Origin: a bacterium
Lineage (GTDB): Bacteria > UBA9089 > CG2-30-40-21 > SBAY01
Assembly: GCA_040757115.1 (NCBI GenBank)
Contig: JBFLYA010000011.1
Location: forward strand, 1-35,524
Direction of reading: 5' to 3'
Length of the DNA stretch: 35,524 bases
A program made the position numbers and the translations under genes. The notes beneath the pieces are model-generated. The model had not been told where the DNA came from, made no database searches, and was given only the letters and a program-made list of their open reading frames with translations. Shown here one piece after another: positions 3,928 to 20,202 of the stretch. Position 1 is the stretch's first letter. Each line of letters begins with the position of its first letter.

Positions 3928-5151
3928 TTAATAAACAGAAAATGGTTCGATATCTTCACAAACAATATCGCCGGTGATATAATGTAAGAATCTCCCGCCA
4001 AATTCATAGTTACCATGAGGTTCACTACCATTGAGGGTATAACTTAATAATGGTGCTTCAAAATTAGCATTTGCACCAATTGTGACCCCTGGCAGGTTAA
4101 GTATAGATATTAACGAATTATCTGGAAACTTAACCCATACCTTTGCATCAAGGACATCAGCTGTATCATCGTTAGTCACATGGGCGTTAGCAGTTAAGAT
4201 ATTTCCTGTGGTAAAGGTCGCACCGTTTAGAATAATATCCAGTGATAGTGCTTGAGGTGGTGTTGTGCCTGACATAAGGATTGTGCTGTTGCCAATTGAA
4301 GACTCTCCATATCTTATTCTAAACCAACCATCTTCACCCCAGCCTGTTCCCCAGCTATTCTTGCATATCCAATATCCTTCTATGTTGTTGTAACCAACAA
4401 AAGCAATCTGGTGGTATCCTTCAAGAACTCCCCATGAGTATTCATAGACTCCACTCTCGTAGAAAAAGAAATCAGTATATACTGCCATTGTCGTGGATAA
4501 AGGTGTTTGAAATAGTGCCCCGCGGATGCTATCCACATTATTTGTCACCCAATTCCATTGACTAATTTGTGTAACCCTATCTTCCCAATCAGGACAGGTA
4601 TTTGCACAGGGATAATCATTACCATTACCTGAAATATAGGGATAACACGCCTCATCAGGAGTTCCGGAGTCTCTCAGATAATTTGCCGCCGATGAGGGAT
4701 ACCATCCGTAGTCACATAACCCACCACCACAGGAAAACAAGTGTTGTTCTGAAAGGTCAATAGATAGAAGTGGGTTATTTGCTTCGATACGCGCTAAAGG
4801 CTCTAAAGCACCAATCGCCCCAAAGGCAACACAACTTCCACAAGCCCCCTGATTGCGAATAGGGGTCGTCCAGTTATATCCATTTGCATTTCGCCAGTCC
4901 CAGATATCGGGTAAAACCTTTGTAGATTTTACCGTGATTGATGGTTTGGTTTGAGGAACAATTATTGCCCCGCATAACCTTTTTCTTGCCTCTTTAGAGA
5001 GTTTGGAAACATCTGTTTCTCCTGCTGTCCAACTTGTTCCTTTTGACTTGATTGCCTTTTTTATTGCCGATAACTCTGCATCCTGTCCAAAGACTAACTG
5101 ACAGGACAGCATTAATCCTATAACTATACTTGTTATTAACTTTAAATTCAT
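3928..5151 (-). CDS. Secreted papain-family (C1A) cysteine peptidase with short prodomain and C-terminal beta-rich domain
   Basis: N-terminal signal peptide; QGACGSCVAF (catalytic Cys), LSEQHL, GYHQIAFVGY (His), YWICKNSWGTGWGEDGWF (Asn). Confidence 0.92.
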   Translation of the reverse strand: MNLKLITSIVIGLMLSCQLVFGQDAELSAIKKAIKSKGTSWTAGETDVSKLSKEARKRLCGAIIVPQTKPSITVKSTKVLPDIWDWRNANGYNWTTPIRNQGACGSCVAFGAIGALEPLARIEANNPLLSIDLSEQHLFSCGGGLCDYGWYPSSAANYLRDSGTPDEACYPYISGNGNDYPCANTCPDWEDRVTQISQWNWVTNNVDSIRGALFQTPLSTTMAVYTDFFFYESGVYEYSWGVLEGYHQIAFVGYNNIEGYWICKNSWGTGWGEDGWFRIRYGESSIGNSTILMSGTTPPQALSLDIILNGATFTTGNILTANAHVTNDDTADVLDAKVWVKFPDNSLISILNLPGVTIGANANFEAPLLSYTLNGSEPHGNYEFGGRFLHYITGDIVCEDIEPFSVY

Positions 5152-5366: not shown

Positions 5367-5396
5367 TTGACAAACTGTGTAGAAATATGCTATTAT
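5367..5396 (+). promoter_or_regulatory. Sigma70-type promoter for the cobalamin operon
   Basis: TTGACA-18 nt-TATTAT with TG extended -10, upstream of the riboswitch. Confidence 0.6.
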
Positions 5397-5462: not shown

Positions 5463-5638
5463 GTAGGTAGAGGAAGTCCTTGTGAGATTCAAGGCACTGT
5501 CCCGCAACGGTAATAAAATCAAAAGATAAAAAACAGAAGACACAAAAATAAGGTTTAACCTTATAAATCTGAGTTCGGACTTTTGATTATTGAGTCCGGC
5601 CGACTACCTACATTTGATAACTACCTTCGCGGAAAGGG
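5463..5638 (+). promoter_or_regulatory. Cobalamin riboswitch
   Basis: Closing helix gtaggtag (5463-5470)/ctacctac (5604-5611); aggaag; T-loop hairpin ccttg-tgagatt-caagg; cactgtcccgcaacggt; B12-box-like gagtccgg; downstream ccttcgcggaaagg hairpin whose loop can kiss cccgc; precedes cob genes. Confidence 0.9.
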
Positions 5639-5656
5639 AATAAAAAGAAAGATTTT

Positions 5657-5692
5657 AACCCAATCTTCTTCGTGGCGAAGGTTGGGTTTTTT
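5657..5692 (+). terminator. Intrinsic terminator acting as riboswitch expression platform
   Basis: aacccaatcttc-ttcgtggc-gaaggttgggtt hairpin followed by a T run. Confidence 0.8.
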
Positions 5693-5778
5693 GTTGAAGA
5701 CTAATAAAAGCAACACTCAATTCCTGAACCTGTCAGGAACAGGTTTTATCCGAGAGCGCTCTTAAAAGGAGGTGGTAA

Positions 5779-5889
5779 ATGATGGAAAAACCAAAAGCCA
5801 AAGACAAAAAAGATGTTATTGCCTTTCGCAAAAAATGTAAGGCTAAAGGCACAGGTCTTTCACATTACATTCTCCTCGATAAGAAGTAA
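5779..5889 (+). CDS. cbpA: 36-aa radical-SAM-modified peptide precursor, CbpA-like (absent from ORF track)
   Basis: RBS aaggaggtg then ATGATG...TAA: MMEKPKAKDKKDVIAFRKKCKAKGTGLSHYILLDKK; the RKxCKAxGTGLSHYIL core is the motif I recall for CbpA peptides; first ORF after the riboswitch, upstream of a SPASM enzyme. Confidence 0.88.
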   Translation: MMEKPKAKDKKDVIAFRKKCKAKGTGLSHYILLDKK

Positions 5890-5898
5890 TGAATGACC

Positions 5899-6018
5899 CG
5901 GTAATCGGTTATCGGTAATACTGGTTACCGATAACCTGATTACCAAATTTGTAACCGTTCACCGCAGAGACGCAGAGAAAAAAAATAAAAACTCTGTGCT
6001 CCCTGTGTCTGTGTGTGA
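5899..6018. repeat. Heptamer palindrome (ggtaatcggttatcggtaa/ttaccgataacctgattacc) plus partial GTAACCGTTCA element between peptide and maturase
   Basis: Direct reading; gtaaccgttcaccgcagagacgcagag starts at 5951. Confidence 0.75.
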
Positions 6019-6049
6019 GGATACATCAGGAAATGGAGGAAATAAAATT

Positions 6050-7420
6050 ATGGTAAGTTCGCGAGGAATTTATTTTAATACAGGTGATGGAATTTCACTT
6101 CAGCCCATAGATATTAAACATAAAGATTATCTCGGATTGGTATCTGCGGATACGGCCTTCTGGATATTAGTTAAGAAAAGTCAATTGGTTAAGGTTCTGA
6201 CTAACATATCTTCTTTGCAGGAATACCGTAAAAAACAACAATCTTTTCTTAAAGAAATGGAGGCTTTGAGGTTTGGGTTGAAACCTTCTGCAGTTTATTT
6301 TAATCTAACTGACCGCTGTAATTTGAATTGTTCGTATTGTTACATCCCGGAAAGATTACGGAAGAATGGCAAACAAATGTCTGCGGAGAGAGTCTTGCGT
6401 GCACTTGAAATCTTAAAGGCTCATTTTAAAGACCAGAAGGCACAAATTGTCTTTCACGGTGCTGAACCACTGCTTAATAAAAAAGCACTATTTTTGGCTA
6501 TTGATAGATTTGGAGATGATTTTCACTTTGGTATCCAGACTAACGCTACATTGCTGGGAAAGGAAGAAATAGACTGGTTGACTTCAAGACAGATAAGTAT
6601 TGGGCTTTCTCTTGATGGCCACACAGCACAGGTGGCTGACAGATTGCGTAAAACATGGGATGGACGAGGTGTTTTTCAAAATGTCATCAAGGCAATAAAT
6701 CATCTTAAAGGTTATGAAAATTATTCGGTCATCTGCACTGTAACAAAGGAAAATATGTCCTCACTGACCAAAATAGTTGAATTTTTACATAATCTGGAAG
6801 TTCCAGTTTGTATGCTAAACCCGGTGCGCTGCACCCTACCAGATGCCCGCAAGTCTAAACCCACAGATTTTGACTTAGCAAAGGATTATCTCAAGGCATT
6901 AGACAAAACATATCAACTTTATAAAAAGACTGGCAGACGGCTTGTGGTCGCAAACTTCGCTAATGTCCTGGTAGCAATTATTGCTCCAACTGGTCGAAGG
7001 TTGATGTGCGATATTTCACCCTGTGGCGGAGGAAGATGCTTTTTTGCCATTTCAAGTAACGGCGATTTATTTCCTTGTAGTGAGTTTATTGGGTTAAAGG
7101 AATTTAAAGGTGGTAATCTTTTTCAAAACGATATTAATAAAGTCCTGACATCAAAACCATTTAAACTTGTTACCGAGCGAAAGATTGAAGGCATTAATCC
7201 CTGTTCTCGCTGTGCCATAAGACATTTTTGCGGCTCACCCTGTCCGGCAGAGGCTTATGAGATGAATGGAGCGATGGAAACTCGAGGTGCATTCTGTGAA
7301 CTTTATGAGGAACAGGTGCGTTATGCCATGCGTTTGATTGCAGATGGCAAAGAGGATGCCTATCTCTGGGATGGCTGGGATAAAGGAACAGTGACCAGTT
7401 TGAATATAACCAGTGTGTAA
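6050..7420 (+). CDS. cbpB: Peptide-modifying radical SAM/SPASM enzyme, CbpB-like
   Basis: CNLNCSYC, FHGAEPLL, QTNATLL, SLDG; SPASM cysteines CDISPCGGGRC...FPC...CSRCAIRHFCGSPC...FC; start moved to ATG 6050 behind ggagga (ORF-track start lies in a repeat). Confidence 0.9.
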   Translation: MVSSRGIYFNTGDGISLQPIDIKHKDYLGLVSADTAFWILVKKSQLVKVLTNISSLQEYRKKQQSFLKEMEALRFGLKPSAVYFNLTDRCNLNCSYCYIPERLRKNGKQMSAERVLRALEILKAHFKDQKAQIVFHGAEPLLNKKALFLAIDRFGDDFHFGIQTNATLLGKEEIDWLTSRQISIGLSLDGHTAQVADRLRKTWDGRGVFQNVIKAINHLKGYENYSVICTVTKENMSSLTKIVEFLHNLEVPVCMLNPVRCTLPDARKSKPTDFDLAKDYLKALDKTYQLYKKTGRRLVVANFANVLVAIIAPTGRRLMCDISPCGGGRCFFAISSNGDLFPCSEFIGLKEFKGGNLFQNDINKVLTSKPFKLVTERKIEGINPCSRCAIRHFCGSPCPAEAYEMNGAMETRGAFCELYEEQVRYAMRLIADGKEDAYLWDGWDKGTVTSLNITSV

Positions 7421-7429
7421 AATAAAATA

Positions 7430-8923
7430 ATGAAAAAGGCAAAAACCATTCAAATTTGTGGAACGGGCTCAGCTGTGGGTAAGAGTGTCCTGGTAGCAGG
7501 GTTGTGCCGAATCTTTCTTCAGGAAGGATTTAAGGTAGCACCTTTTAAGGCACAAAATATGGCACTTAATTCCGCTGTTACTCAAGATGGTCTGGAAATC
7601 GGTCGGGCTCAGGCAATGCAGGCACAAGCCTGTGGATTAAAACCTACGGTTGATATGAATCCTGTATTACTTAAGCCGACCAGTAATGTTGACTCCCAGG
7701 TTATTATTTATGGCAAACCAATCGGAAATATGTCCGCATTCCAATATTACAACTACAAATCAAAGATATTTCCTCAGGTCAAAGAATCTCTGAATAGATT
7801 AAGACAGGAATTTGACATTGTGGTCATAGAGGGTGCAGGGTCACCCGCAGAGATTAATCTAAAAAAATACGATATTGTCAATATGCGGATTGCTCGCTTA
7901 ATAAAATCGCCGGTATTGTTAGTCGGCGATATTGACCGAGGTGGTATTTTTGCCTGGTTATTGGGCACATTACAACTTCTGTCTGAGTCCGAAAAAAAGT
8001 TAGTCAAAGGTTTTATCATTAATAAATTTAGAGGCAACAAAGCCCTTTTGAAAAATGGACTGCGTTTTCTGGAAAAAGAATCAGGTAAAAAAGTGGTTGG
8101 TGTTGTTCCTTATTATGATGACATAAAACTGCCTCAAGAAGATTCCCTGTTTTTTGACCAGCCTAAAAAAAGCAGGGTTAAAGAAGACGCAATAAAGATA
8201 GTTGTGGTCAGGCTGCCGCATATCTCTAACTTTACTGATTTTGATGTCTTTGAACAGGAAGAAGTGGATTTTGAGTATAGCGTTGATATAAATGATATAA
8301 AAAAGGCAGACTGTATTATTTTACCAGGAAGTAAGAATACCTGCGATGATTTAGAGTTTCTTTATGAGAAAGGAATTGTTGAGGTAATAAAACAAAAGGC
8401 AGAGCAAGGTTGTGTTATCGTAGGAATTTGCGGCGGCTATCAGATGCTTGGCAACAATATCCGTGATACCTTTGGCGTGGAAGGTAAAAAGAGTGTTCAA
8501 GGACTGGGATTGCTTGATATGGAGACGCAATTTAATAAGGAAAAGAACACCTATCTGGTGCAAGCCAAAGATTTAACCAGAAATCTCCTCATCAACGGTT
8601 ATGAAATCCATCATGGTCTAACTAAAATTAATGGTTCGTATTTATTTTTAATTATCAAACGCGGGGACAAAAAAGTGCATATTAAAGATGGAGCAGTAAA
8701 TTATGCGGGTAATGTCTGGGGGACCTATATTCACGGACTTTTTGATAATCATTTATTTCGACATAATTTCTTAAATGAGCTGAGAAAAAAAAGGGGGTTG
8801 CCCATTAAACAAGTGATGGGTGAATTTTCTCAAGATAAGGAATATGATAAACTTGCTGATTTGTTACGAGAAAATCTTGAGATGGAATTTATAAAGGAAA
8901 TAATCGGTGTCTATAATGGCTAA
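7430..8923 (+). CDS. cobQ: Cobyric acid synthase
   Basis: GTGSAVGKS, PFKAQNMALNS, EIGRAQ, MNPVLLKP, EGAGSPAEINL, ISNFTDFD, GICGGYQMLG, GYEIHHG, GTYIHGLF. Confidence 0.97.
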   Translation: MKKAKTIQICGTGSAVGKSVLVAGLCRIFLQEGFKVAPFKAQNMALNSAVTQDGLEIGRAQAMQAQACGLKPTVDMNPVLLKPTSNVDSQVIIYGKPIGNMSAFQYYNYKSKIFPQVKESLNRLRQEFDIVVIEGAGSPAEINLKKYDIVNMRIARLIKSPVLLVGDIDRGGIFAWLLGTLQLLSESEKKLVKGFIINKFRGNKALLKNGLRFLEKESGKKVVGVVPYYDDIKLPQEDSLFFDQPKKSRVKEDAIKIVVVRLPHISNFTDFDVFEQEEVDFEYSVDINDIKKADCIILPGSKNTCDDLEFLYEKGIVEVIKQKAEQGCVIVGICGGYQMLGNNIRDTFGVEGKKSVQGLGLLDMETQFNKEKNTYLVQAKDLTRNLLINGYEIHHGLTKINGSYLFLIIKRGDKKVHIKDGAVNYAGNVWGTYIHGLFDNHLFRHNFLNELRKKRGLPIKQVMGEFSQDKEYDKLADLLRENLEMEFIKEIIGVYNG

Positions 8924-9710
8924 AACAAAGGCTTTTTGTTGCTGGAGTGGTGGTAAGGATAGCTTATTGGCTTGTGTTAGGGCAAGCAAAGAAGTTGAGG
9001 TTACCTATCTTTTAAATATGGTGGATGAAAATGGTATCTCCTCTCGTTCACACGGACTTGGTTCAAATGTATTGAAACTCCAGGCTGAGATAATCGGTAT
9101 CCCGCTTGTTCAGAAGAAAACCAGCCGACAAACCTATGAACAAAGGTTTAAGGAGGCGATAGCTGAGATTAAAGACCTGGGTGTTTCTCCTGAAAATCGG
9201 GACTCGGGACTCGGGGTTCGGGACTCGGGAAGGCTGGTAGCCGCAGGCTTCAGCCTGATTTCACCTGAACCATCAAACCATCAAACCCATTTTCATCTTC
9301 CTTTGTGCCCACTCCCTGTGGGCATGAGCGTTTCTCAAGGTGTATTTGGCGATATTGATGTTGTAGAACATCGAGATTGGATTGAGCGGGTCTGTCGAGA
9401 AATGGAGATAACCCCAATATTTCCCTTGTGGGAAGCAGATAGAGAGGAGATGCTTGCAGAATTTATGCAGGCTGGCTTTAGAGCCGTGGTTGTCTCAAGC
9501 AAAATAGGACAGGAATGGTTGGGTAGAGAGATAGATGAGCAGTTTGTCAACGAACTGAGGGCATTGGGGAACATTGACCTATGCGGCGAAAATGGCGAAT
9601 ATCACAGCTTTGTCTATGATGGACCTATATTTAAAAAACCGGTACTATTTACCCCGGGTAAAACTACCTTTAAAGACAATCGCTGGTTTTTGGAGATAAT
9701 TCCAAAATAA
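8916..9710 (+). CDS. Diphthine--ammonia ligase-like (Dph6/MJ0570) PP-loop ATP pyrophosphatase with a 49-aa in-frame insertion
   Basis: WSGGKDS PP-loop, SRSHG, VFGDID, PLW, DLCGENGEYHSFVYDGPIF; likely start at ATG 8916 overlapping the cobQ end. Confidence 0.85.
   Translation: MAKTKAFCCWSGGKDSLLACVRASKEVEVTYLLNMVDENGISSRSHGLGSNVLKLQAEIIGIPLVQKKTSRQTYEQRFKEAIAEIKDLGVSPENRDSGLGVRDSGRLVAAGFSLISPEPSNHQTHFHLPLCPLPVGMSVSQGVFGDIDVVEHRDWIERVCREMEITPIFPLWEADREEMLAEFMQAGFRAVVVSSKIGQEWLGREIDEQFVNELRALGNIDLCGENGEYHSFVYDGPIFKKPVLFTPGKTTFKDNRWFLEIIPK
9183..9336. mobile_element. 147-bp in-frame insertion bounded by a GTTTCTC direct repeat
   Basis: GTTTCTC at 9183-9189 and 9330-9336; interior has cgggact heptamers, GTAG-headed palindrome gtagccgcaggcttcagcctg, aaccatca repeats and hairpin tgcccac/gtgggca. 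Confidence 0.8.
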
Positions 9711-9718
9711 ACTAATTA

Positions 9719-10097
9719 GTAAGCGTTCAGATAGTAATTCACCGCAGAGACGCAGAGCAACAGAGAAAACATAGAAATAAAGTAACTATTCAGCCACTGA
9801 TTATAGCACTTATTAATCGGTAACCGTTCAGGATATAGCCACAGAGTTACAGAGAACACAGAGGGAATATATAACCAACGAATGAACACAAGTACAAAAA
9901 GATTCGACCTGTGCGGTTAAATGTAAAATGGATAATGTAAAATGTATAACTGAAAGGTAATGAGTCTGGCGAAGGACTAAAATTTCCCATTTTTCATTTC
10001 CTATTTTACATTTATTTTTCCTTTGCGTCTCTGCGATGAATTAGTTTAATCGCACAGGTCGATTTTTTTCTCTGCGTCTTTGTGTCTGTGTGGTGAA
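9719..10097. mobile_element. Stack of nested or partial miniature elements
   Basis: Three GTAA-type left ends (9719 gtaagcgttcag, 9782 gtaactattcagccac, 9820 gtaaccgttcagg); separate element 9904-10062 with ends tcgacctgtgcggttaaa/tttaatcgcacaggtcga (17/18 match); degenerate right end ctctgcgtctttgtgtctgtgtggtgaa. Confidence 0.75.
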
Positions 10098-10113
10098 TCA
10101 GGAGGTTAAAGAG

Positions 10114-11199
10114 ATGGACGCAATCCTGCTTTTAGGACATGGCAGCAGGTTATCAGAAACCAATAAAACACTCCTTCAAATGGCTCAAATGGTTAAGGAG
10201 ATAGGTAAGATACCATTGGTTGAGATAGCATTTTTACAGTTCCAGAGGCCTGATTTCTTTGACGCTGTCAAAACCTGCATCTCGAAGAACGCAAAAAAAA
10301 TCATTGTCCATCCTTATTTCCTCTATCAGGGAAGACATTTTGAAGAAGATATAACCGAAATGATTACAGAGGCAAAAAAGAGATATAACGAGATTGAGTT
10401 TATCCTCACAGAACCTCTGGGCGTGCATGAAAATATCGCCAGAGTCGTCCTTGAACGAACAAAGAAGAATATCCGTGAGATTAAAATACTCAAATCTCAC
10501 GAAATAGAGGAGAAAAGCATTGAGATAATCGGCGAAGAACTGGGTGAAACAAACTTCCGTGATACTGAATTATCCATTGTCAAAAGGGTTATCCATGCCA
10601 GTGCAGATTTTGATTTTGCTAAAAATCTACGATTCCACCCAGAAGCCGTAGAGGCAGGGATAAGAGCAATAAAGGCGGGAAAAGATATTCTTGTGGATGT
10701 CAGGATGGTTGAGGCAGGGATAAATAAGAGATTGCTTCAAAACTGGCATGGAAGAGTTATCTGTAAAATCCAAAATTTTGCTTCGCAACATTCTTCGCAT
10801 TCAAAATCTAAAATCCAAACTCCAGAAGATAAAACAAAAGCAGAAATGGGAATAGAAATGGCATTACAGAAAAATAACAATATTGGTATCATTGCCATTG
10901 GAAATGCGCCCACAGCCCTCTACCGGGCAATGAAACTCATCCGTGCTGGAATTTACACCCCTGGACTTGTTATTGGTGTGCCAGTTGGCTTTGTTAAGGC
11001 AGTTGAGTCAAAAGAGGTGCTCCTGCATATGAAATATCCATTTATTACCTCAGTGGGAAGAAAAGGCGGAAGTCCGGTCGCAGTGGCAATAGTCAATAGC
11101 CTTTTAAAAATAGCAGAAGGAAATACAGTAACCGTTCCTGTGATTCAGACACTGGACATCAGACACAAGACTATAGACTCTATTTATGCAGGAAATTAG
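10114..11199 (+). CDS. cbiC: Fusion of CbiX/SirB-type sirohydrochlorin cobaltochelatase and precorrin-8X methylmutase (CbiC/CobH)
   Basis: N-terminal LLGHGSR, PYFLYQGRH..EDI, EPLGVH; C-terminal IEEKS..II, RVIHASADF, AIGNAPTAL, IGVPVGFV, GRKGGSPVAVAIVN; start ATG 10114 behind aggagg. Confidence 0.9.
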   Translation: MDAILLLGHGSRLSETNKTLLQMAQMVKEIGKIPLVEIAFLQFQRPDFFDAVKTCISKNAKKIIVHPYFLYQGRHFEEDITEMITEAKKRYNEIEFILTEPLGVHENIARVVLERTKKNIREIKILKSHEIEEKSIEIIGEELGETNFRDTELSIVKRVIHASADFDFAKNLRFHPEAVEAGIRAIKAGKDILVDVRMVEAGINKRLLQNWHGRVICKIQNFASQHSSHSKSKIQTPEDKTKAEMGIEMALQKNNNIGIIAIGNAPTALYRAMKLIRAGIYTPGLVIGVPVGFVKAVESKEVLLHMKYPFITSVGRKGGSPVAVAIVNSLLKIAEGNTVTVPVIQTLDIRHKTIDSIYAGN

Positions 11200-11260: not shown

Positions 11261-11681
11261 ACATTTCGCTCCTACGGAGCTGAATTCTTTAAGGATTATC
11301 ATAGTCTACAAATATATCACTCCTAACGGAGTTTAAAAATATAGCACTTATTATTCAAAACTTTACTTAGAATTAAATACTCGTAACTACTCGTAGTGAA
11401 TTAACAAGTTATGCGTGAACCATTGCTACACTATGTCAAATTAGTGCTATAACTCTCTATATTTTTAGACAATTATGTCCATTTGGCTTGCCTTCCTCTA
11501 TTTCTTATGATAAAATGGGGAAAAATAGAATATGAAAATTCGACCTCATCCTTCATTTAATGTCCCATAGGGACATTATATCGGTAAATGGTTTTCCATA
11601 AATTTTCTACCAATATATCGTTCCTACGGAACTGATTGATTTGTCTATCTATTCCTACCGATATTATGTTCCTAACGGAAT
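11261..11681. repeat. Cluster of five REP-like palindromes, consensus CTAC-N2-ATAT-N3/4-(T/C)TCCTA(A)CGGA
   Basis: Hairpins at 11268-11280, 11319-11332, 11559-11577 (inverted copy), 11620-11632 and 11669-11680; CTAC (GTAG on the minus strand) precedes three of them. Confidence 0.75.
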
Positions 11682-11719
11682 GATTATTCTCATGCCTTAT
11701 TTATGGGTATTATCCTATG

Positions 11720-11998
11720 CTGGAGTTTCGTGAATTTTCTATGATTCCTTTCTCATTTAATCTTTGCGTTCTTTGCGGTTAAAAAAAGGATAAACCACAA
11801 AGGGCACAAAGTAGTAACGCAAAGGACACAAAGGGAAGAAAATAGGTGAAGCATTTTTTATCAACTCAACTTCAAAGGATAAGTTGCAAAAAAAAATCAT
11901 CAGGCTTTTGAGCCTAATTTTGCCATCTTTGAGCAAAATAAACAGATTGATAAGGATTCAGATAGCCTCAATAGCTCCTTAAATTAACGAAACTCCAG
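11720..11998. mobile_element. MITE with CTGGAGTTTCGT(G/T)AATTT ends
   Basis: 11720-11737 ctggagtttcgtgaattt and 11981-11998 aaattaacgaaactccag (17/18 inverted match); interior has ctttgcg/cacaaag repeats. Confidence 0.75.
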
Positions 11999-12052
11999 TA
12001 AAAGTCGTTTAATGTCTCGTTTGAACTGGGTTGTTCTTCGAATAGTCAGCTT
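11984..12052 (-). pseudogene. N-terminal remnant of a YafQ-like (RelE superfamily) toxin
   Basis: Reads (K)LTIRRTTQFKRDIKRLL, then runs into the MITE end; expected TAATG stop/start overlap is TAAAG. Confidence 0.65.
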
Positions 12053-12660: not shown

Positions 12661-13248
12661 TTATAATATCAAATCAACCCAATTTTCAAAAGAGCTATTC
12701 TTAAAATCTTTGCTTGCTTTGTCAAAATAAACCCAGCGTCCGCGATAATTCCGCTCGGTGTTGGTGACTATACCGCCAAAACATTTTTTGCCTTTTTTAT
12801 TTTCACTTTGAATATACTTATACAATCCATCAATTTTTGGTCCAGCAATCTGTTTTGTTAAGCTGGCCTTGGTATCAAACAGGCCAATCCTTCCGTCCTT
12901 CAACTTCACAATAAAATCAACATAAAAGGGGTTCTTTTTGCCGTTGTCATAAGGAACGGCAAAAAATGTTGCGTCTCTGTCACCGTTTTTAAACCACCAC
13001 TCAACTTTGTTGTCCGATTTTTCCAAAAAATCAATAAAAAGCCGTTTCCGGTTCCCATCTTTCATCGCTGTAAAACGGCATCATTATTGATTTCTTTACT
13101 TCTTCAAAATTTCCGCCATCATTATTGTTTTGCCCGAGCCGGTCGGCGACTTGAAAACAAGTTTTTTACTCCCAGAATAACCCAAAAGCCGCTTGGCTTT
13201 TATCAATAAATCATCTATTGCGTTTTCTTGATAAATTTTTAGTTGCAT
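12661..13248 (-). pseudogene. Internally deleted second copy of the type III restriction (res) gene
   Basis: 13248-13103 matches the res 5' end (MQLKIYQENAID...SPTGSGKTIMMAE) and is joined at a cttc microhomology to the res 3' end; about 1.6 kb missing; premature stop and an extra frameshift near 13040. Confidence 0.92.
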
Positions 13249-13250
13249 AG

Positions 13251-14375
13251 TTAATCAAATAATTTTATGTACTGCTGATGGGCAAAAACTTTATTTCTTT
13301 TTTTGCCAGTTATTTCTCTTAGAATTTCTAATTTAACTAATTTATTGACCAATGCTAAAGCATTAGGATTTTTAAGTCCTGTCATCCTTTCAATGTCTTT
13401 TATTGTCGCAAGGGGTGTGTGAAATAGAGAATTAAAAACTAATGTCGCCTTGTGAGTGGACCTTCCTAAAGATAAAATTTTATTCAAGCCATCCCCCCGT
13501 AGTTTCAATATCTTTTTACTTGTTTCAACTGCCTGTTCGGCGGTAACCGCTACTCCTTCAAGAAAAAACTTTAACCAACCTTCAATATCATCTTTTCCGT
13601 GAAAAGCGTTAAGACGGTCATAATATTCTTGTCTATATTTTTTGAAAAAATCTGAAAGATAAAGCAAGGGCTTAGCTAATGCCTTTTGCTGACAAAGATA
13701 AAATGTAATTAAAAGGCGTCCGATTCTTCCGTTGCCATCTAAAAACGGGTGAATGTTTTCAAATTGAGCATGAAGCAACCCTGTCTTTAACAATATCGGC
13801 ATAGGAGATTTATCGTGCAAAAACTTCTCAAAATTATCCAGCAAAGTCATTATTTCCTGCGGCGGAGCCGGAATAAAAGATGCTCTTTGGAGAGTTATCC
13901 CACCTATCCAATTTTGAGATTTTCTAAATTCTCCCGGTTCCCTTCCTTCGCCTCTTACACCTTCAAGCAAGATTTTATGAATTTCTCTTATCAATCTTAA
14001 AGAGAGCGGGAACGATTTTAGACGGTCTAATCCATAATTCATTGCTTTTATATAATTCAAAATTTCATCAACATCTTTGTGGATTTCCAAATCTTCTACT
14101 TTCGCTTCCGCTTTCAAAACATCGGTAAAGGTAGCTTGTGTTCCCTCCACCTGACTTGATAAAGTCGCCTCTTTTCTGATATACATCAGAATAAAAAAAT
14201 CCACATCGGGCAATGTTTCGGCAATTCCATCCAGCCGACCCAATGCCAAATCTGCTTTTGAAAGCAAACTTTGAAGTTCCTCATCGGCTTTAATTTCAAA
14301 AGGCAAGAAATCTGGCACAAATGCCTTATATTGCAATTCACTTTTTAATTGGTTAATGTATTTTCCGCTTCTCAT
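13251..14375 (-). CDS. Fic-family protein (Fic/DOC N-terminal domain, Fic core, C-terminal wHTH)
   Basis: HPFLDGNGRIGR motif, EATLSSQVEGT inhibitory motif, PGEFRKSQNWIGG. Confidence 0.93.
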   Translation of the reverse strand: MRSGKYINQLKSELQYKAFVPDFLPFEIKADEELQSLLSKADLALGRLDGIAETLPDVDFFILMYIRKEATLSSQVEGTQATFTDVLKAEAKVEDLEIHKDVDEILNYIKAMNYGLDRLKSFPLSLRLIREIHKILLEGVRGEGREPGEFRKSQNWIGGITLQRASFIPAPPQEIMTLLDNFEKFLHDKSPMPILLKTGLLHAQFENIHPFLDGNGRIGRLLITFYLCQQKALAKPLLYLSDFFKKYRQEYYDRLNAFHGKDDIEGWLKFFLEGVAVTAEQAVETSKKILKLRGDGLNKILSLGRSTHKATLVFNSLFHTPLATIKDIERMTGLKNPNALALVNKLVKLEILREITGKKRNKVFAHQQYIKLFD

Positions 14376-14382
14376 AATTTTG

Positions 14383-14446
14383 AATCGTAGATTGGTTGTT
14401 TTTAATCTACGATTTTAAGTATAAATCGTAGATAAATTATTGTCAA
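14383..14446 (-). promoter_or_regulatory. fic promoter overlapped by three copies of an AATCGTAGAT operator-like motif
   Basis: Minus strand TTGACA (14441-14446)-17-TATACT (14418-14423); aatcgtagat at about 14383 and 14424, inverted atctacgatt at about 14405. Confidence 0.7.
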
Positions 14447-14916
14447 TCTTTTTCTACCATAGATAACTTTTTGATTGTTTATGTTTTACTAAATAAATCA
14501 TTTACATATCTTTTTAATCGTCCCCGCACAAAAAATTTTTTCATTTAAGGAAACGAAAATTTTTCTGTTTTGATATTCTGCTAACGCAGAATTGCAGAAA
14601 CGCTTCCCACCCCAGACGACGGAGCGGGCGGGCAAAAATTCATTGGTGGGGATGACACTCAGTCCCCCTTTCTCTTCACTCTACTACTTATACACATTTC
14701 TAACGGGGTTTGCCATTATGAGAATATTTTACCAAAATCTTTCCCTATTGTCAACGAGATTTTAACTGACAGTCCTGAAGAGTAAAAAATCTTCACACAA
14801 AAACCCCTTGAAATAATCCATTTTTTATTCTGGGAAGGTTTGTTTTTCTTTCTGTTTCAGTTAGGTTCCAGCCGTAATATTGACTATACCTTTGGGAAGG
14901 AATTCTTAGCTAATTT

Positions 14917-17136
14917 TTATAATATCAAATCAACCCAATTTTCAAAAGAGCTATTCTTAAAATCTTTGCTTGCTTTGTCAAAATAAACCCAGCGTCCGCG
15001 ATAATTTCGCTCGGTGTTGGTGACTATACCGCCAAAACATTTTTTGCCTTTTTTATTTTCACTTTGAATATACTTATACAATCCATCAATTTTTGGTCCA
15101 GCAACCTGTTTTGTTAATCCAGCCTTGGTGTCAAACAAGCCAATCCTTTCATCCTTCAACTTCACGATAAAATCAACATAAAAGGGTTTCTTTTTGCCGT
15201 TGTCATAAGAGATGGCAAAAAATGTTGCGTCTCTGTCGCCGTTTTTAAACCACCACTCAACCTTGTTGTCCGATTTTTCCAGAAAATCAATAAAAGCCGT
15301 TTCCGGCTTCCATCTTTCATCGCTGTAAAACGGCATCATTATTGATTTTTTTACTTCAACTTTTTTATACTCGCCGCCAAAAGATAGAGTTTCCGGAACA
15401 TTCCAATCCGGCACCTCAACCATTTCACTTTCTCTTTTTTCAACTTCTTCTCTGTATTTTTCCTTGACTTTATCTAAAACATTGACGAAATGCTGAGAGT
15501 TTTTATCGCTCAAAACTATTTGGACGATTTCTTCCCAAACATCGCCATACCACATTTTTAATTCTTGCTCAAAAAACTTATAAATTGATTCTTTTACTCT
15601 GCCAACTGACCTGTCTTCAGGATAGAAAGGTGTTAGGTGGTCGCGCACCCAAAAATCAAGCAATTTCTGTAAATCAAAACCGCTGGTTTTTATGGGCTTA
15701 TCGCCAACAATTTTAACTCCTGCCAAAGCGTCAACATCTTCGGCTTTATAATCAGAGATGATTTTCAAATCAATTTTTCTTATCTTTATATCAACATTCT
15801 TTTTCAAGCCATATTCCCTGGCCTCTGCTAAAAATATCTCTGTAAAAAGAGGAGATAATCTCGTTTTCTCACGATGTCTTTTGGGATAGCAAGAAACTAA
15901 ATTTAATTTAGGATCAAAACTTCTCCTGCTTGTGTAAATCGTGATGTAATCTTTGGCAATGTCTTCTTTAATCTCTATATTGTCCAAATTGGTATAAACA
16001 TACCCATAATTCAAAATCTCGCTTTTGTAATGGCCCTTATCTGGTTCGGGCATACGCATAATCCTGCCGACTGTCTGGATTGAAAAAATCGGACTGTGCC
16101 ATTCTCTAAACAAAACTAAAATCTGTGCTCTCGGACAATCCCAGCCCAAAGCAATAGCCTGCTTGAAAAGTAAAACTTCAACATAGTTATCCATCTTTTC
16201 TACTTCTTCTTTATTGATGTGTTCGCCCGAAAGCCAAATTCCTAGCCGATTGTTTCCTTTTTCCGTTGAGATTTTATATTTGCTTTTCAAAATACTTTCC
16301 ACCCGTTCCCTTATTCTATCCTCTAAACTTGTTTTTCTGTCTGGCAATTGAATTAAAACTAAAGGATTGACATTAACTCCTTCTTTTTGAAATTCTTTAA
16401 CTAATTCTTGCTTCTTTTTCATCGCCGCGTCTATGACCAATTCCTCGCTACCACCACTTAATTTCTGTGTTTGGATTTTTCCTTGTCTTATAAAACTCTC
16501 AAACTCATCATTCAAAATAACCGCTTTTTTAATCATTCCGTCTCTTTTGACATCCTCAAGCAAAACATCAACAGAAAGGTCGCCGCTTAAAACCGGCGTT
16601 GCCGAAACCTCAATTGTTAATTTCGGCCCAATCATCTGAATTAGGCCTTGCGAAATTTCGCTGGTGGCGTGATGATGGGCTTCGTCAATAATCAAAATTA
16701 TTTCCAGGACATCTTCCTTTGTCCTCTCTAATACCTTTGACAAGTTAAAATCCTGTTCGTTATCGCGAATATAGATATTGTCTGCTTTGTTTATACTTTC
16801 CCAGTTAAAAAATAAAATCTCATTTCCGCTTATTTTCCTGTCGTCTAAATCCTCAAAATAGGAACACTTTAACGCTCGGCTTGTCTCAAAATAGTTTTCT
16901 AACTTATCTCGGCTTTGCTTATGAAGCTGTCTTGGGGCCGTCCAGATAAAGCCGAGAGATTGCCTGATTTCTCTGTCGTCCACTAACTGCTTCAAAAATT
17001 CCGCCATCATTATTGTTTTGCCTGAGCCGGTCGGCGACTTGAAAACAAGTTTTTTACTGCCAGAATAACCCAAAAGCCGCTTGGCTTTTATCAATAAATC
17101 ATCTATTGCGTTTTCTTGATAAATTTTTAGTTGCAT
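14917..17136 (-). CDS. Type III restriction endonuclease Res subunit (SF2 helicase plus C-terminal PD-(D/E)XK nuclease)
   Basis: SPTGSGKT, IIDEAHH, SATP, LGWDCPRAQIL, QTVGRIMR, FYVDFIV...DTK; start at ATG 17136, 4 nt after the upstream stop and matching the second copy's start. Confidence 0.9.
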   Translation of the reverse strand: MQLKIYQENAIDDLLIKAKRLLGYSGSKKLVFKSPTGSGKTIMMAEFLKQLVDDREIRQSLGFIWTAPRQLHKQSRDKLENYFETSRALKCSYFEDLDDRKISGNEILFFNWESINKADNIYIRDNEQDFNLSKVLERTKEDVLEIILIIDEAHHHATSEISQGLIQMIGPKLTIEVSATPVLSGDLSVDVLLEDVKRDGMIKKAVILNDEFESFIRQGKIQTQKLSGGSEELVIDAAMKKKQELVKEFQKEGVNVNPLVLIQLPDRKTSLEDRIRERVESILKSKYKISTEKGNNRLGIWLSGEHINKEEVEKMDNYVEVLLFKQAIALGWDCPRAQILVLFREWHSPIFSIQTVGRIMRMPEPDKGHYKSEILNYGYVYTNLDNIEIKEDIAKDYITIYTSRRSFDPKLNLVSCYPKRHREKTRLSPLFTEIFLAEAREYGLKKNVDIKIRKIDLKIISDYKAEDVDALAGVKIVGDKPIKTSGFDLQKLLDFWVRDHLTPFYPEDRSVGRVKESIYKFFEQELKMWYGDVWEEIVQIVLSDKNSQHFVNVLDKVKEKYREEVEKRESEMVEVPDWNVPETLSFGGEYKKVEVKKSIMMPFYSDERWKPETAFIDFLEKSDNKVEWWFKNGDRDATFFAISYDNGKKKPFYVDFIVKLKDERIGLFDTKAGLTKQVAGPKIDGLYKYIQSENKKGKKCFGGIVTNTERNYRGRWVYFDKASKDFKNSSFENWVDLIL

Positions 17137-17140
17137 AAGA

Positions 17141-18520
17141 TTAAATCCGTCCTTGTAAAAATTTTTGTATATCATTCTTAAATGTTTCTCTTGGTGGATT
17201 TTCCCATTGAAACAGATAAATTAAATCTAAATATGACTCAAGAGCAAGCTGATCTGATTTATTCAGTAAATCGGTGACAGAAAAAGTTTGCGTATGATAA
17301 TTCCATGGTTCGCTAATTTTTGCCATTCGTGGAAAACTAGAAGGCATTCTATTAAAAGAATCTACAACGAGCTCGCGATTATTTAAATCATAAAGTTTGA
17401 TTTCAATAATCAAATTTTCATCAAAAACGTTTTGAGTCGCTAATCGTTTAGCAAATTCAAAAATTTCGGTTAATGTATATAAAGTTCCAAGAACACCAAG
17501 CCATTTTTTACCTTTAAGTTCGTCTCCCCTTGCCCATATATTTCTATATTCGACATCTTTTAACCAATCCTCTCTTAAGGCTAAAAGGTGATAAAAATTA
17601 GCGCTTTTAGTCATTCTCCAAAATTCAATATGATTAGACCAATTGATAGTTTTTTCAACCCCATCTAAAGTAGGATAGGGTTCACCCTCACTATCTCTAA
17701 AATGAGGATAATCCCAACCCTTAAGCTTAACAACAGCGGATTGCACAATATCTTTTATTTTCTGTTTCTCAATTCTTTGTGAATTATAAACACTAGGGCG
17801 GATGTTTATTTCCCAATAGCCCTTGGATTTTATTTTTGTGATAACTTCATCCTTGTTCATAGTTACTTTGATATCCTTCAACTCTGCTTTAAACTTATCT
17901 TGGTCAGTTTTTGTACTTTTTAACACTTTCACACTTGACATTGTCTTAAAAAATCTTTGCACTCTAACAGAGAACAAGGCTAATTCCTTTTCAATTGCTA
18001 AATCTATTATCTCTCTCATTTCAGAAGGTTCGGTAATCTTTTTTGTTTCCGGTTTGTCGGTTCTAATATAAACAACAGAATTTTCAAGCCGATTTAAATT
18101 TCTGTTGTTTTTGCAAATAATGGGAGCAAATATAAAACTTTGAACTGCGAAAACTATAAAATTTTTACTATCATATTCAATATTGAGAATTTGAAATTTA
18201 GGTTCTGGTTCGCCAAAGTTTCTCACATGTTCAAAAATTAAATCTTGATCGTAAGTTTTTAAATTGTCCTCGCTCACTCCTTTTAATAAATATTTCTTTT
18301 CTTCATCGTCCCTCTCTATTCCTAAAATTATCTTACCTCCATCACGAGTATTAGACATAGCTAGAATACTCTTGATAATTTCTTGAACCTTGTCGTTCTC
18401 TCGAATAAGATCAATCTTGTTTGGCCAAGGAATAGAAGGTTTAAATTCAACAGATTTACTCTCATTTGGAGATTCTAATATACCGGTAATAATTTTGTCG
18501 GCTTTTGTGGGATTAATCAT
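17141..18520 (-). CDS. Schlafen/AlbA_2-domain protein fused to an unrecognised C-terminal domain
   Basis: ESKSVEFK...IIKSILAMSNTRDGGKIILGI...YIR is the AlbA_2 signature; second domain starts near MNKDEVITKIKSKGYW. Confidence 0.8.
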   Translation of the reverse strand: MINPTKADKIITGILESPNESKSVEFKPSIPWPNKIDLIRENDKVQEIIKSILAMSNTRDGGKIILGIERDDEEKKYLLKGVSEDNLKTYDQDLIFEHVRNFGEPEPKFQILNIEYDSKNFIVFAVQSFIFAPIICKNNRNLNRLENSVVYIRTDKPETKKITEPSEMREIIDLAIEKELALFSVRVQRFFKTMSSVKVLKSTKTDQDKFKAELKDIKVTMNKDEVITKIKSKGYWEINIRPSVYNSQRIEKQKIKDIVQSAVVKLKGWDYPHFRDSEGEPYPTLDGVEKTINWSNHIEFWRMTKSANFYHLLALREDWLKDVEYRNIWARGDELKGKKWLGVLGTLYTLTEIFEFAKRLATQNVFDENLIIEIKLYDLNNRELVVDSFNRMPSSFPRMAKISEPWNYHTQTFSVTDLLNKSDQLALESYLDLIYLFQWENPPRETFKNDIQKFLQGRI

Positions 18521-18524
18521 AACT

Positions 18525-20198
18525 TTACTTAAAAATCCTTCTATAAACCCGTAAAATTGCTTCGGGGATTGGCGATAATTGGACTTTCTGTTTTACATCT
18601 TTGAACTCATCATCAAAAGTTTCATCGCCCAAAGAGAAAACATAGACGCTGAATTTTCCTTTTATGTCTTTAATCGCTTTTTTGAAAGCCGGAATTGCTG
18701 TTTGGTCCCAAATAATGCCAGTATAGTAGTCTGAATTTTTGAAAACTTTAAATCTTTCGTTATCTAATACCTTTTCAAAAGTTCCCTCTTTAACACAAAG
18801 CATTTCTGTTGCCTGTTGGGTGAGTTTAATTTTGTTGCTGTCCGTTGGCTCATCATAATCAACAAAATCGGTTTTGAAATATTTAAGGTTGGCTGGAATT
18901 CCTGTTATATCAGGATAGTCTTTATGTCCTTCTATAACTCTTTTAATTCTAGTCCAGCATACTTCTTCAGCAATGTCATTTTCGTTATTTGTACAAAGGA
19001 TAAATTTTCTTTCGCCACTATCTTCTTTATTAAGCAACAAAAGAGCATGAGCAGTAGTTCCCGAACCCGCAAAATAATCTAAAACGATGGCATTTTTTCT
19101 TGAATATAAAATTGGAGCTATGCAATCGTAGGTATTCCAAATAGATTTTGGAAAATCAAAATGGGTATTCGGCACTAAAGCGTGGACCAATTTTGTCCCG
19201 TATTCATTGGCATCATAACGACTATCTTGCCATACTGTTCTAACTGTTCCAAAATCCTTACCAATTTCAATTTCATAACCTGTTCTTGTTCTTCTTGTTC
19301 TCAATAAATTTTTAACTTCTTCTATGCTTTGTCTTGCATATCGCCATTTCCTTTCAATTTTGTTTCTATCAATGGGATAAATATAATAAGCATCACCAAC
19401 TTTTTCTGTCTGCGATTTTGGGTGTTTCTCATTGGGTAAAACATCCCCAAAACCAATAACCTCATCATCTTTTACGATGATCGGATAAAAACAGTTCTTG
19501 GCGTCTGTTCTTAACGATTCACCGCCGTTATCCCTTAAATTCCTCCAATCTATATCTTTAGGCTGTATTTTTCTCTTTTCTATAACTCTCAATCCTTTCC
19601 TAAAAACAAAATACGCATATTCGTGGGTATATGAAAAATTATTTCCTTGAACTCCTCTTGGATTATGCACTATTGTTATACAATGAATTTCAAATCCTTT
19701 AAAAATTTCTTCCAGTAATAATCCCAATCGGTAAAATTCATTATCATCAATTGCACAGACAAACACGCCGTTTTCTTTTAATAAATTTCTTGCCAATCGC
19801 AGTCTATGCCCCATCATACTTAACCACTTGCTGTGTCTCCACGCATCGTTAATATCAACATAGTCATTGTTATACTTCCAATCTCTTGCCCCTGTATTAA
19901 ATGGAGGGTCAATGTATATGACATCTATTTTACCAGGGTGGGTGTAATTCAAAACAGAGAGGGCATGATAATTATCACCTTCAATCAATAAATTTACTGG
20001 CTTATTTTTATCGGTAATAATTTCTTTATCCTTAACTTCTTTCAACACCGGCAGTTTCTCTTTGCACATCTCAACCACTTCTTCTGGTTTTTCTTCCCAA
20101 ACAAGCCCGTATTTTTTCCTTTTCTTCAATTCCTTTTTCAGCCGCTCAACTTCTGCTTTCAAATTTTCAATCTCTAATTTTTTATTTTCTTTTGCCAT
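18525..20198 (-). CDS. Type III Mod-like amino (N6-adenine) DNA methyltransferase, beta class
   Basis: KKYGLVWE, LIEGDNYHAL, IYIDPPFNTG, FDFPKS, VLDYFAGSGTTAHA, RKFILCTNNE. Confidence 0.92.
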   Translation of the reverse strand: MAKENKKLEIENLKAEVERLKKELKKRKKYGLVWEEKPEEVVEMCKEKLPVLKEVKDKEIITDKNKPVNLLIEGDNYHALSVLNYTHPGKIDVIYIDPPFNTGARDWKYNNDYVDINDAWRHSKWLSMMGHRLRLARNLLKENGVFVCAIDDNEFYRLGLLLEEIFKGFEIHCITIVHNPRGVQGNNFSYTHEYAYFVFRKGLRVIEKRKIQPKDIDWRNLRDNGGESLRTDAKNCFYPIIVKDDEVIGFGDVLPNEKHPKSQTEKVGDAYYIYPIDRNKIERKWRYARQSIEEVKNLLRTRRTRTGYEIEIGKDFGTVRTVWQDSRYDANEYGTKLVHALVPNTHFDFPKSIWNTYDCIAPILYSRKNAIVLDYFAGSGTTAHALLLLNKEDSGERKFILCTNNENDIAEEVCWTRIKRVIEGHKDYPDITGIPANLKYFKTDFVDYDEPTDSNKIKLTQQATEMLCVKEGTFEKVLDNERFKVFKNSDYYTGIIWDQTAIPAFKKAIKDIKGKFSVYVFSLGDETFDDEFKDVKQKVQLSPIPEAILRVYRRIFK

Positions 20199-20202
20199 AA
20201 TT

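Follow-up and report, generated by a model that had tools for sequence, protein, structure and literature searches.

The contig JBFLYA010000011.1 (assembly GCA_040757115.1; 35,524 nucleotides, all of which is called the window here) from a bacterium of the GTDB lineage UBA9089, CG2-30-40-21, SBAY01 contains a short peptide gene followed by a gene for a radical S-adenosylmethionine (SAM)/SPASM enzyme. Comparison with curated protein families strongly supports that this locus is a genuine CbpA/CbpB pair, which occurs exactly once in the genome. It is likewise strongly supported that the pair belongs to one transcript starting at a riboswitch of the adenosylcobalamin (AdoCbl) class with an intrinsic terminator, for which switching by the ligand is predicted. 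Cobalamin riboswitches as a norm allow expression only when adenosylcobalamin is scarce, and their usual targets are B12 synthesis, B12 uptake and B12-independent substitute enzymes. By this logic, the pair would be made only at adenosylcobalamin scarcity. The best explanation for the locus as a whole, which we consider probable although far from certain, is a genuine riboswitch-controlled pair in which CbpB binds and modifies CbpA and which has an intracellular role during B12 shortage.

CbpA matches the model TIGR04164 ("modified peptide precursor CbpA") with 52.3 bits against a cut-off of 35 (E 2.7e-14), residues 13-36 aligning with profile positions 1-24 of 25. CbpB matches TIGR04163 ("peptide-modifying radical SAM enzyme CbpB") with 676.7 bits against a cut-off of 375 (E 1.2e-203) over the whole profile (1-428 of 428), and both are thus members of the respective family. 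The initial annotation of the window, made from the sequence alone, had named both identifiers, and they proved to be correct; the peptide frame with a strong ribosome binding site that it had proposed is also present. A GGAGG Shine-Dalgarno sequence (5768-5772) lies 6 or 9 nucleotides ahead of two adjacent ATG codons. In a homologue of the same genus (L048; L0xx labels surveyed loci with a CbpB relative, P0xxx database peptides) the first position holds no start codon and the second one a GTG, therefore 5782 is probably the start, which would give CbpA 35 amino acids. In the following, residues of CbpA are counted from the Met at 5782. The peptide has 12 basic and 4 acidic residues and a conserved module, I13...R16..C19...G23-T-G-L-S-H-Y29. 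R16, G25, L26 and H28 are invariant in an alignment of 43 peptides, and I13, C19, G23, T24, S27 and Y29 are conserved to at least 90%. The entropy at the three codon positions is 0.38, 0.11 and 1.60, respectively (37 distinct DNA versions, nine core codons), and this third-position variation indicates that the small open reading frame (ORF) is under protein-coding selection. Moreover, scanning the six frames for the motif and picking ORFs by script located such a peptide directly 5' of cbpB, on the same strand and with a Shine-Dalgarno sequence, in the window and in each of the 42 related loci whose sequence extends upstream (L013 and L052 are truncated on that side). Its presumed conservation upstream of the maturase is thereby borne out. 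In many loci the stop of cbpA and the start of cbpB are separated by -4 to +2 nucleotides, and in P0156 both are joined in one in-frame CbpA::CbpB ORF.

A profile search of a large protein collection returned 2758 clusters (90% identity) at E<=0.001, many of them named CbpA by NCBI or JGI, and 266 representatives at 50% identity came from an all-against-all representative library. The 13 top-scoring database peptides (P0001-P0013, e.g., from Sedimenticola) carry two whole modules in tandem within 67-80 amino acids, with the consensus VIA.RK.C.A.G.GLSHYILMDK occurring twice. Since these peptides repeat the whole module, its approximately 24 residues are self-contained, and recognition does not lie in the Lys-rich N-terminus. 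Behind the module, the tails are variable (DKK, KKK, APSAD...).

The start of cbpB was set to 6050 by alignment with homologues and not to the GTG at 5996 of the longest ORF. Pfam recognises a Radical_SAM and a SPASM domain in CbpB. The radical SAM motif CxxxCxxC (C90/C94/C97) and a complete SPASM run (C325...G338-x4-C343, C385-x2-C388-x5-C394-x3-C398, C416) are present, and these Cys motifs are invariant or at least 90% conserved among 38 homologues. In the AlphaFold2 (AF2) model (predicted local distance difference test, pLDDT, 87.8; predicted template modelling score 0.88) an N-terminal domain of three strands and two helices (residues 18-75) precedes the barrel, and the closest solved proteins are CteB, then anSME, TigE, ChlB and SuiB. 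As modelled, CbpB would have a CteB-type build, with an N-terminal sheet resembling the RiPP recognition element (RRE; RiPP, a peptide made by the ribosome and modified after translation), a radical SAM barrel and a full SPASM domain for two clusters. Two loci from the same family as the window (L050, L051) encode a CbpB that is only 39-40% identical to that of the window, so that two very different cbpAB lineages exist within one family; their peptides read ...RLKCEKTANGLSHFVMYGD and are rich in Cys (CGCC or CCCC) at the N-terminus. A quick tree, left unfinished, places the CbpB of the window within a clade of 13 rows, mostly from loci labelled Omnitrophota (Shimodaira-Hasegawa-like approximate likelihood ratio test 98), a hint that the cbpAB cassette has moved horizontally; a direction of transfer is not claimed.

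Ahead of cbpA lies the aptamer of a cobalamin riboswitch, followed by a terminator-like hairpin. With Rfam gathering thresholds no RNA family is found in the window, and an Rfam search in E-value mode as well as the paralogues in the same genome were needed to recognise the riboswitch. The match to RF01482 (E 5.6e-6) covers model positions 1-149, which is the full length, leaves 72 bases unaligned in one loop, and scores 41.3 bits, below the gathering score of 50, which counts against the assignment. However, the genome contains three copies of RF01482 above threshold (C151:168-312, C421:13276-13414 and C421:16339-16477; 51.6-54.4 bits), and a MAFFT alignment shows that the core of the window aptamer equals them almost base for base. 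The sole difference is an insertion of approximately 60 nucleotides, of which the genome holds no second copy. Therefore, the low score is due to an expanded peripheral loop rather than to a decayed aptamer. The hairpin (5657-5688) is present in both the minimum free energy (MFE) fold and the centroid fold. The cobalamin riboswitch with terminator of the initial annotation is thus found at its place, the terminator as a prediction, and only the gathering score is missed. In the MFE fold, ACUACCUUC at the 3' edge of the aptamer (5620-5628) pairs with the region of the cbpA Shine-Dalgarno sequence (5766-5775). There are hints of translational control besides termination, although this modelled pairing may be due to chance. 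Every detectable B12 riboswitch of the genome is of the RF01482 class, RF00174 having no match in the whole genome, and both riboswitches on C421 share the contig with matches to BtuFCD and the TonB receptor.

A scan of one genome per species yielded 39 loci with a CbpB relative (45-76% identity), which according to the labels of the source records belong to Omnitrophota, Nitrospirota, Planctomycetota, Elusimicrobiota, Chloroflexota, Thermodesulfobacteriota, Kiritimatiellota, Chlorobiota and Pseudomonadota. Five more loci were added from relatives of the window organism. When 35 related loci were searched with Rfam, making 36 together with the window, a cobalamin riboswitch was located directly before cbpA in 18 and at the head of the operon in five, whereas none was seen in 13. 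Those directly before cbpA belong to RF00174 in 9/10 loci of one set, in 5/7 of a second and in L049, and to RF01482 in L051 (same family as the window; 57.2 bits, above threshold) and in L048 (38.4 bits). The five at operon heads, defined by the same-strand gene run containing cbpA, are those of L017, L019, L020, L044 and L046. Among the loci with no riboswitch seen, nine are on contigs whose first base falls in the upstream cob operon or no more than approximately 250 nucleotides from its first ORF, two have less than 400 nucleotides upstream, and L018 and L025 are unexplained. In the related loci, all 22 cobalamin-class matches lie upstream of cbpA and on its strand, and in the stand-alone loci that were measured the aptamer ends 147-324 nucleotides before the codon of G23. 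Because of these direct and operon-head riboswitches, all upstream of cbpA and on its strand, riboswitch, cbpA and cbpB together can be assumed, with strong support, to be the conserved evolutionary unit, and control by a B12 riboswitch is the most constant feature of the family, as the comparison supports.

The further neighbours of the pair are less constant. A Pfam survey of 234 ORFs between -4 kb and +6 kb of cbpB in 29 of the 39 loci (omitted were L014, which is short, L047, which is cut, and eight near-duplicates belonging to the Desulfurivibrio group) showed two contexts. In 11 loci, cbpAB lies in the middle of a long cob/btu operon on the plus strand. These loci are mostly labelled Omnitrophota, four are labelled Nitrospirae, Planctomycetia or Syntrophaceae, and one just "bacterium". 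Their operons comprise CobT, CobS, CbiB, CobD (Thr-P decarboxylase) and sometimes CobU, CobC or CbiZ, followed by BtuF/C/D, CobA and a TonB receptor. A protein consisting only of an AsnB-like synthetase domain adjoins cbpA in ten of the 11 (the remaining one, L013, is truncated on the 5' side), a Dph6-like PP-loop gene follows cbpB in ten (the exception is L017), and frequently a small radical SAM protein, or two of them, come next. In the remaining phyla, unrelated genes surround the solitary pair, and in the Desulfurivibrio group a flavin mononucleotide reductase follows it. That the pair heads a cobalamin operon, as initially annotated, therefore holds for the window and not for the family, in which it mostly stands alone behind its own riboswitch or in mid-operon. 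The Dph6-like gene was considered as a core partner and ruled out, as PF01902 is present in none of five genomes with stand-alone pairs; it is an accessory instead. It is strongly supported that cobQ, the Dph6-like gene and cbiX-cbiC of the window are local passengers on the same transcript, outside the conserved unit. The solved structures nearest to the AsnB-like protein are AsnB and beta-lactam synthetase, and it ends in a zinc-ribbon-like motif, CPGC...CKVCG. In three independent sequences (L015:1762-2805, L017:8656-9708 and P0149) the AsnB-like ORF runs in frame into CbpA without a stop, and elsewhere the AsnB-like gene and cbpA are directly adjacent or share 22-34 nucleotides. The sequences suggest that the AsnB-like enzyme may act on CbpA in loci that have both. 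In L013 a c-di-GMP-I riboswitch (65.6 bits; L013:9507-9594) lies downstream of the TonB receptor gene of the operon carrying cbpB.

Binding of the peptide was modelled from alignments of CbpB and CbpA together with three 4Fe-4S clusters and SAM. The complex scored 0.90 (median of three runs) and the best control 0.02; this mark was attained for 58 of the 80 solved complexes and for 2 of the 110 mismatched pairs in a calibration whose set-up differs from our own alignments and riding ligands. The three runs share at least 71% of their contacts, and the pLDDT of the partner is at least 62. The surest contacts are those of CbpA residues 11-14 on the CbpB strand 37-42, in the N-terminal sheet. R16 and K17 are in contact with CbpB residues 311-312 and 449-453, the latter in the C-terminal tail; residues 9-33 all contact the enzyme, including its barrel and SPASM domain. 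In the model, V12-I13-A14 would add a strand to strand 37-42 of CbpB, and the segment G23-Y29 would lie in the catalytic cavity. CbpB is thus modelled to bind the self-contained 24-residue module of CbpA, a picture that fits the tandem modules of P0001-P0013 and the in-frame fusion P0156. Besides the deviating set-up, two points weigh against this picture: the score may partly be a memory of the solved peptide complexes of CteB, SuiB and ChlB, and in an AF2 model of the C-terminally truncated P0156 (row 1 of alignment A4) the peptide part is undocked with a pLDDT below 50, which is uninformative.

Within the cavity, a 5'-deoxyadenosyl radical would abstract a hydrogen from the invariant segment G-L-S-H-Y. 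The most likely outcome, which we propose only tentatively, is a thioether ring closed by Cys19. The best matches of CbpB among other NCBIfam models are PapB (172.4 bits only), anSME, QhpD and the SCIFF maturase, and the closest structure is the thioether-forming CteB. Furthermore, Cys is found in 214 of 216 modules of one sample; among the 50%-identity representatives, 148 of 150 modules have it shortly before L26 and one further peptide has it 12 residues before (P0190, a low-complexity Lys-rich match of 885 amino acids, was excluded from this count as a false match). Overall, Cys is conserved to approximately 98-99% and replaced by Ser, Ala or Gly in rare variants. However, exactly these three independent Cys-less variants (Ser in L026/P0189, Ala in P0156, Gly in P0274) argue against the ring, since the module is otherwise intact, and in L026 all invariant residues of CbpB as well as the riboswitch (72.7 bits) are retained. 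The distance from Cys to L26 also varies (6, 7, 8, 9, 10 or 12 residues), whereas G25, L26 and H28 never vary, and for this reason the essential target may not involve Cys. It is therefore quite possible, if short of an even chance, that the same pair under the same regulation performs a Cys-independent modification within G25-L26-S27-H28-Y29, namely a C-C or C-O cross-link, an epimerisation or an oxidation, with Cys serving otherwise, e.g., in metal or corrinoid ligation by the finished peptide. The invariance of G25, L26 and H28 (43/43 peptides) and of the segment behind G25, which is LSHY in 147 of 150 modules, LSHF in two and LAHY in one, is in agreement with this, and CbpB also matches cyclophane formers and anSME with E values of 1e-26 to 1e-40. 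Against it stand the high conservation of Cys and the nearest characterised relatives, which are thioether formers by both hidden Markov model (HMM) and fold; an anSME-like oxidation would moreover meet Gly at the +4 position of the motif C/S-x-P/A-x-R. That the small ORF is a regulatory leader or a chance ORF and that CbpB acts on another substrate, e.g., a corrinoid, is near refuted. The peptide was indeed missing from the ORF track used for the initial annotation, but the TIGR04164 score above cut-off, the coding-type conservation, the 2758 clusters, the tandem and in-frame fused forms and the complex score of 0.90 versus 0.02 all stand against this reading.

Regarding the biological role, the genome contains 18 matches to the B12-binding domain PF02310 that reach the family cut-off, located in open frames of 447-575 amino acids, and by its gene content the organism is a heavy user of B12. 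CbiA, eight TP_methylase domains, cbiX-cbiC, cobQ, CobT, CbiB, CobS, CobD, CobU, CobA and BtuFCD are present, and CbiD and CbiJ were not found in this genome, which has an estimated completeness of 99.87%. Judged from these genes, de novo production by the organism is incomplete, or else it uses unrecognised substitutes. CbiD is present in seven of ten other carrier genomes and was not found in three. Replacement of a missing cob step by CbpAB was therefore rejected. The search for a cob or cbi step consistently absent from carriers, which the initial annotation had suggested, revealed none. Hence cbpAB occurs in producers and likely salvagers alike and replaces no single missing step.

Where the modified peptide acts is less certain than the pair itself. 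We think it possible, albeit doubtful, that the basic peptide stays uncleaved, is not exported by dedicated machinery and acts inside the cell in the cobalt and corrinoid economy during B12 shortage. No signal peptide, leader-cleavage motif, dedicated ABC exporter or protease and no immunity gene was found in the window, nor does any of these recur regularly beside the pair in the 29 loci, so that the leader-removal and export machinery expected for a RiPP is missing. The absence of exporter and protease claimed initially thus holds for the operon of the window, but HlyD-type adaptors follow cbpB in L024, L028 and L030 (3/29 loci), and TonB receptors or BtuFCD neighbour the pair in many loci. 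These neighbours fit an exported product as well and therefore weigh against an intracellular role. Among sequencing runs, the stretch occurs only in DNA runs of one groundwater study, with no RNA run among those listed. Secretion of the modified peptide under B12 starvation, either as a "metallophore/corrinophore" that scavenges cobalt or corrinoids and re-enters through TonB/Btu systems or as a cationic peptide releasing corrinoids from cells nearby, is nevertheless unlikely. In its favour, cbpAB directly follows a TonB receptor gene in L019 and a riboswitch-led one in L020, in the cob/btu loci has BtuF/C/D and a TonB receptor as operon partners, is followed by the HlyD-family adaptors and encodes a peptide with a large excess of basic residues, but most pairs stand alone among unrelated genes, and a core nearly invariant over more than eight phyla is unlike that of antagonistic peptides. 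It is likewise unlikely that modified CbpA handles cobalt or corrinoids directly, with His28 and Cys19, held in a small ring, as ligands, as a RiPP-type chaperone or as a secreted "corrinophore" where TonB, Btu or HlyD genes are near. In accessory-rich operons, with the AsnB-like protein in frame with CbpA, a Dph6-like amidating enzyme and additional small radical SAM proteins, His may in this case bear a more elaborate decoration resembling diphthamide. Still less probable is that CbpA is a sacrificial scaffold from which, as for pyrroloquinoline quinone (PQQ) or mycofactocin, a small molecule is cut out, i.e., a cofactor or a building block of cobamides such as a base or linker derived from His or Tyr. 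The AsnB-like and Dph6-like genes flanking cbpAB in 10 of the 11 cob/btu loci, often with small radical SAM proteins and within nucleotide-loop or salvage operons, the in-frame fusions of the AsnB-like ORF with CbpA (P0131, P0136, P0149) and the conservation of His28 and of an aromatic residue at position 29 would suit a scaffold. However, the accessory genes are lineage-specific, as seen for PF01902; in the genome of the window the AsnB-like match is weak (30% identity), and a small radical SAM or CbiZ partner was not found by tblastn. In addition, the conserved core comes with neither protease nor tailoring enzyme, and the tandem two-module precursors and variable tails suit a peptide product better. 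An intracellular role of riboswitch-controlled CbpA, modified by CbpB, remains our preferred, if uncertain, explanation.

The features of the locus are compiled in Table 1. As initially annotated, cobQ, a PP-loop gene and cbiX-cbiC follow the enzyme, and the ORF listing places all these genes, beginning with the peptide, on the plus strand (5996/6050-7420, 7430-8923, 8907-9710 and 10090-11199). The start of cobQ is 9 nucleotides after the cbpB stop. The PP-loop ORF stays below the Dph6 cut-off of NCBIfam (113 versus 197), and a repeat element of approximately 150 nucleotides (~9185-9335; depth of ~95 matches in the genome) sits in frame inside it, splitting the Pfam match in two while the reading frame is unbroken. 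Between this gene and cbiX-cbiC lie 380 nucleotides of interspersed repeats. The repeat core in the spacer between cbpA and cbpB has a depth of ~155 blastn matches on 105 contigs. Since the spacers of homologues measure only -4 to ~100 nucleotides, the length of 160 nucleotides is attributed to inserted repeats. The promoter candidate, with 11 of 12 matches, lies approximately 50 nucleotides 5' of the aptamer, in a region with 17 promoter-like sites versus 18.8 in shuffled sequences and thus no excess.

Table 1. Positions of the riboswitch, the cbpA/cbpB pair and the genes behind it in the window
Feature	Position	Strand	Family or basis
Sigma-70-like promoter candidate (TTGACA, 18 nt, TATTAT, with TG)	5367..5396	+	consensus match only
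AdoCbl-class cobalamin riboswitch aptamer, ~60-nt insertion in peripheral loop	5445..5642	+	RF01482
Intrinsic-terminator-like hairpin and T-run (expression platform)	5657..5697	+	12 pairs, 5 G-C, then TTTTTGTTG
cbpA, precursor peptide	5779..5889 (36 aa) or 5782..5889 (35 aa)	+	TIGR04164
cbpA-cbpB spacer, 160 nt	5890..6049		inverted repeat and genome-wide short interspersed repeat (~5945-5995)
cbpB, radical SAM/SPASM enzyme, N-terminal RRE-like beta3-alpha domain	6050..7420	+	TIGR04163
cobQ (cobyric acid synthase)	7430..8923	+	NF001989 637.7 bits, cut-off 273; Pfam CobQ
Dph6-like PP-loop ATP pyrophosphatase (Diphthami_syn_2)	8907..9710	+	PF01902 168.4 bits, two stretches
cbiX-cbiC fusion (cobaltochelatase / precorrin-8 methylmutase)	10090..11199	+	Pfam CbiX 101.3 bits, CbiC 226.6 bits

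Short interspersed repeats resembling miniature inverted-repeat transposable elements occur throughout the genome, with copies in the window at 5945-5995, 9185-9335, 9711-10089 and 11340-12000, and larger elements (~150-360 nucleotides) occupy the gaps 3' of the Dph6-like gene and 3' of cbiX-cbiC. This repeat load probably explains the fragmentation of the assembly into 462 contigs. On the 5' side of the locus, Pfam identifies PSP1, MetG, a ParA-like ATPase and a divergent papain-family protease. The latter (3928-5151, minus strand) was considered as a partner and dropped, as it is not a conserved neighbour in the surveyed loci. Further downstream, a defence- or restriction-like block on the minus strand (12661-20886) comprises Fic/DOC, a ResIII helicase, Schlafen/AlbA_2, an N6_N4 DNA methylase and RadC.

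The CbpA/CbpB families have already been named by annotation pipelines, and by its scores the pair of the window is a bona fide member. A full-text literature search, whose coverage excludes subscription journals and supplements, found no paper that deals with TIGR04163/TIGR04164, treats CbpB as a radical SAM enzyme or describes a RiPP under riboswitch control, and in the same search no established product turned up, in line with what had been stated initially. A look-up by term in PMC10114670, PMC10288494, PMC12727194 and PMC9600662 gave nothing relevant. The survey contributes four points: riboswitch, cbpA and cbpB are conserved as a triad, GLSHY is the invariant target, natural variants lack Cys, carry tandem modules or are fused in frame, and a mode of binding is modelled. 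That a modified peptide belongs to the riboswitch regulon across at least eight phyla implies a participant in the B12 or cobalt economy that had not been recognised. The family is large and yet compact, with one peptide and one enzyme, and its cultured carriers include Hydrosulfovibrio ferrireducens, Fundidesulfovibrio putealis and Sedimenticola hydrogenitrophicus. Because of this compactness and its presence in cultured organisms, the question is directly testable.

Compared with known systems, the locus agrees with CbpA/CbpB in the order of peptide and enzyme, in the cobalamin-related context and in the module, which is the same as in the 43 aligned homologues. Peculiar to the window are the loop-expanded riboswitch directly before cbpA, the position of cobQ between cbpB and the Dph6-like gene, and the interspersed repeats in the spacer and in the Dph6-like ORF. 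Structurally closest is the SCIFF/CteB system (TIGR03974; PDB 5WHY, 5WGG; sequence E 7e-29, fold E 3e-22 for 5WHY, template modelling score 0.68-0.75), which shares with CbpB the RRE-like N-terminal domain, the radical SAM barrel and the SPASM domain. SCIFF is also a small conserved peptide that is not known to have a dedicated protease or exporter, but has six Cys where CbpA has one, and we know of no link of SCIFF/CteB to a riboswitch; with 127.7 bits against a cut-off of 425 for the SCIFF model, CbpB is not a member. The second-best fold match is anSME (TIGR03942; PDB 4K36-4K39), of which CbpB with 138 bits against 349 is not a member either. anSME accepts Cys or Ser in its target motif. 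This would fit the Ser variant of L026, whereas the Ala and Gly variants are not oxidisable in that way, and CbpA, reading C-K-A-K-G, is off the motif. QhpD is likewise excluded by its cut-off (128 bits against 453). In PQQ (PqqA/PqqE) and mycofactocin (MftA/MftC) biosynthesis, a short peptide and a radical SAM/SPASM enzyme also lead to a product used inside the cell. Those systems need further conserved enzymes and proteases, whereas the conserved core of CbpAB has no such extra enzymes, and the motif of CbpA is internal and followed by variable tails. The best HMM match outside its own family is PapB of the ranthipeptide system PapA/PapB (NF047865), for which CbpB stays below the cut-off of 340 and is a non-member. 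PapB is reported to be a radical SAM/SPASM enzyme forming thioethers from Cys to Asp (PMC10739248). CbpA has no conserved Asp or Glu as acceptor, since its tails vary. Judged by these scores and folds, CbpB is an enzyme that works like those of the SCIFF/CteB, PapB, QhpD and anSME families without belonging to any of them.

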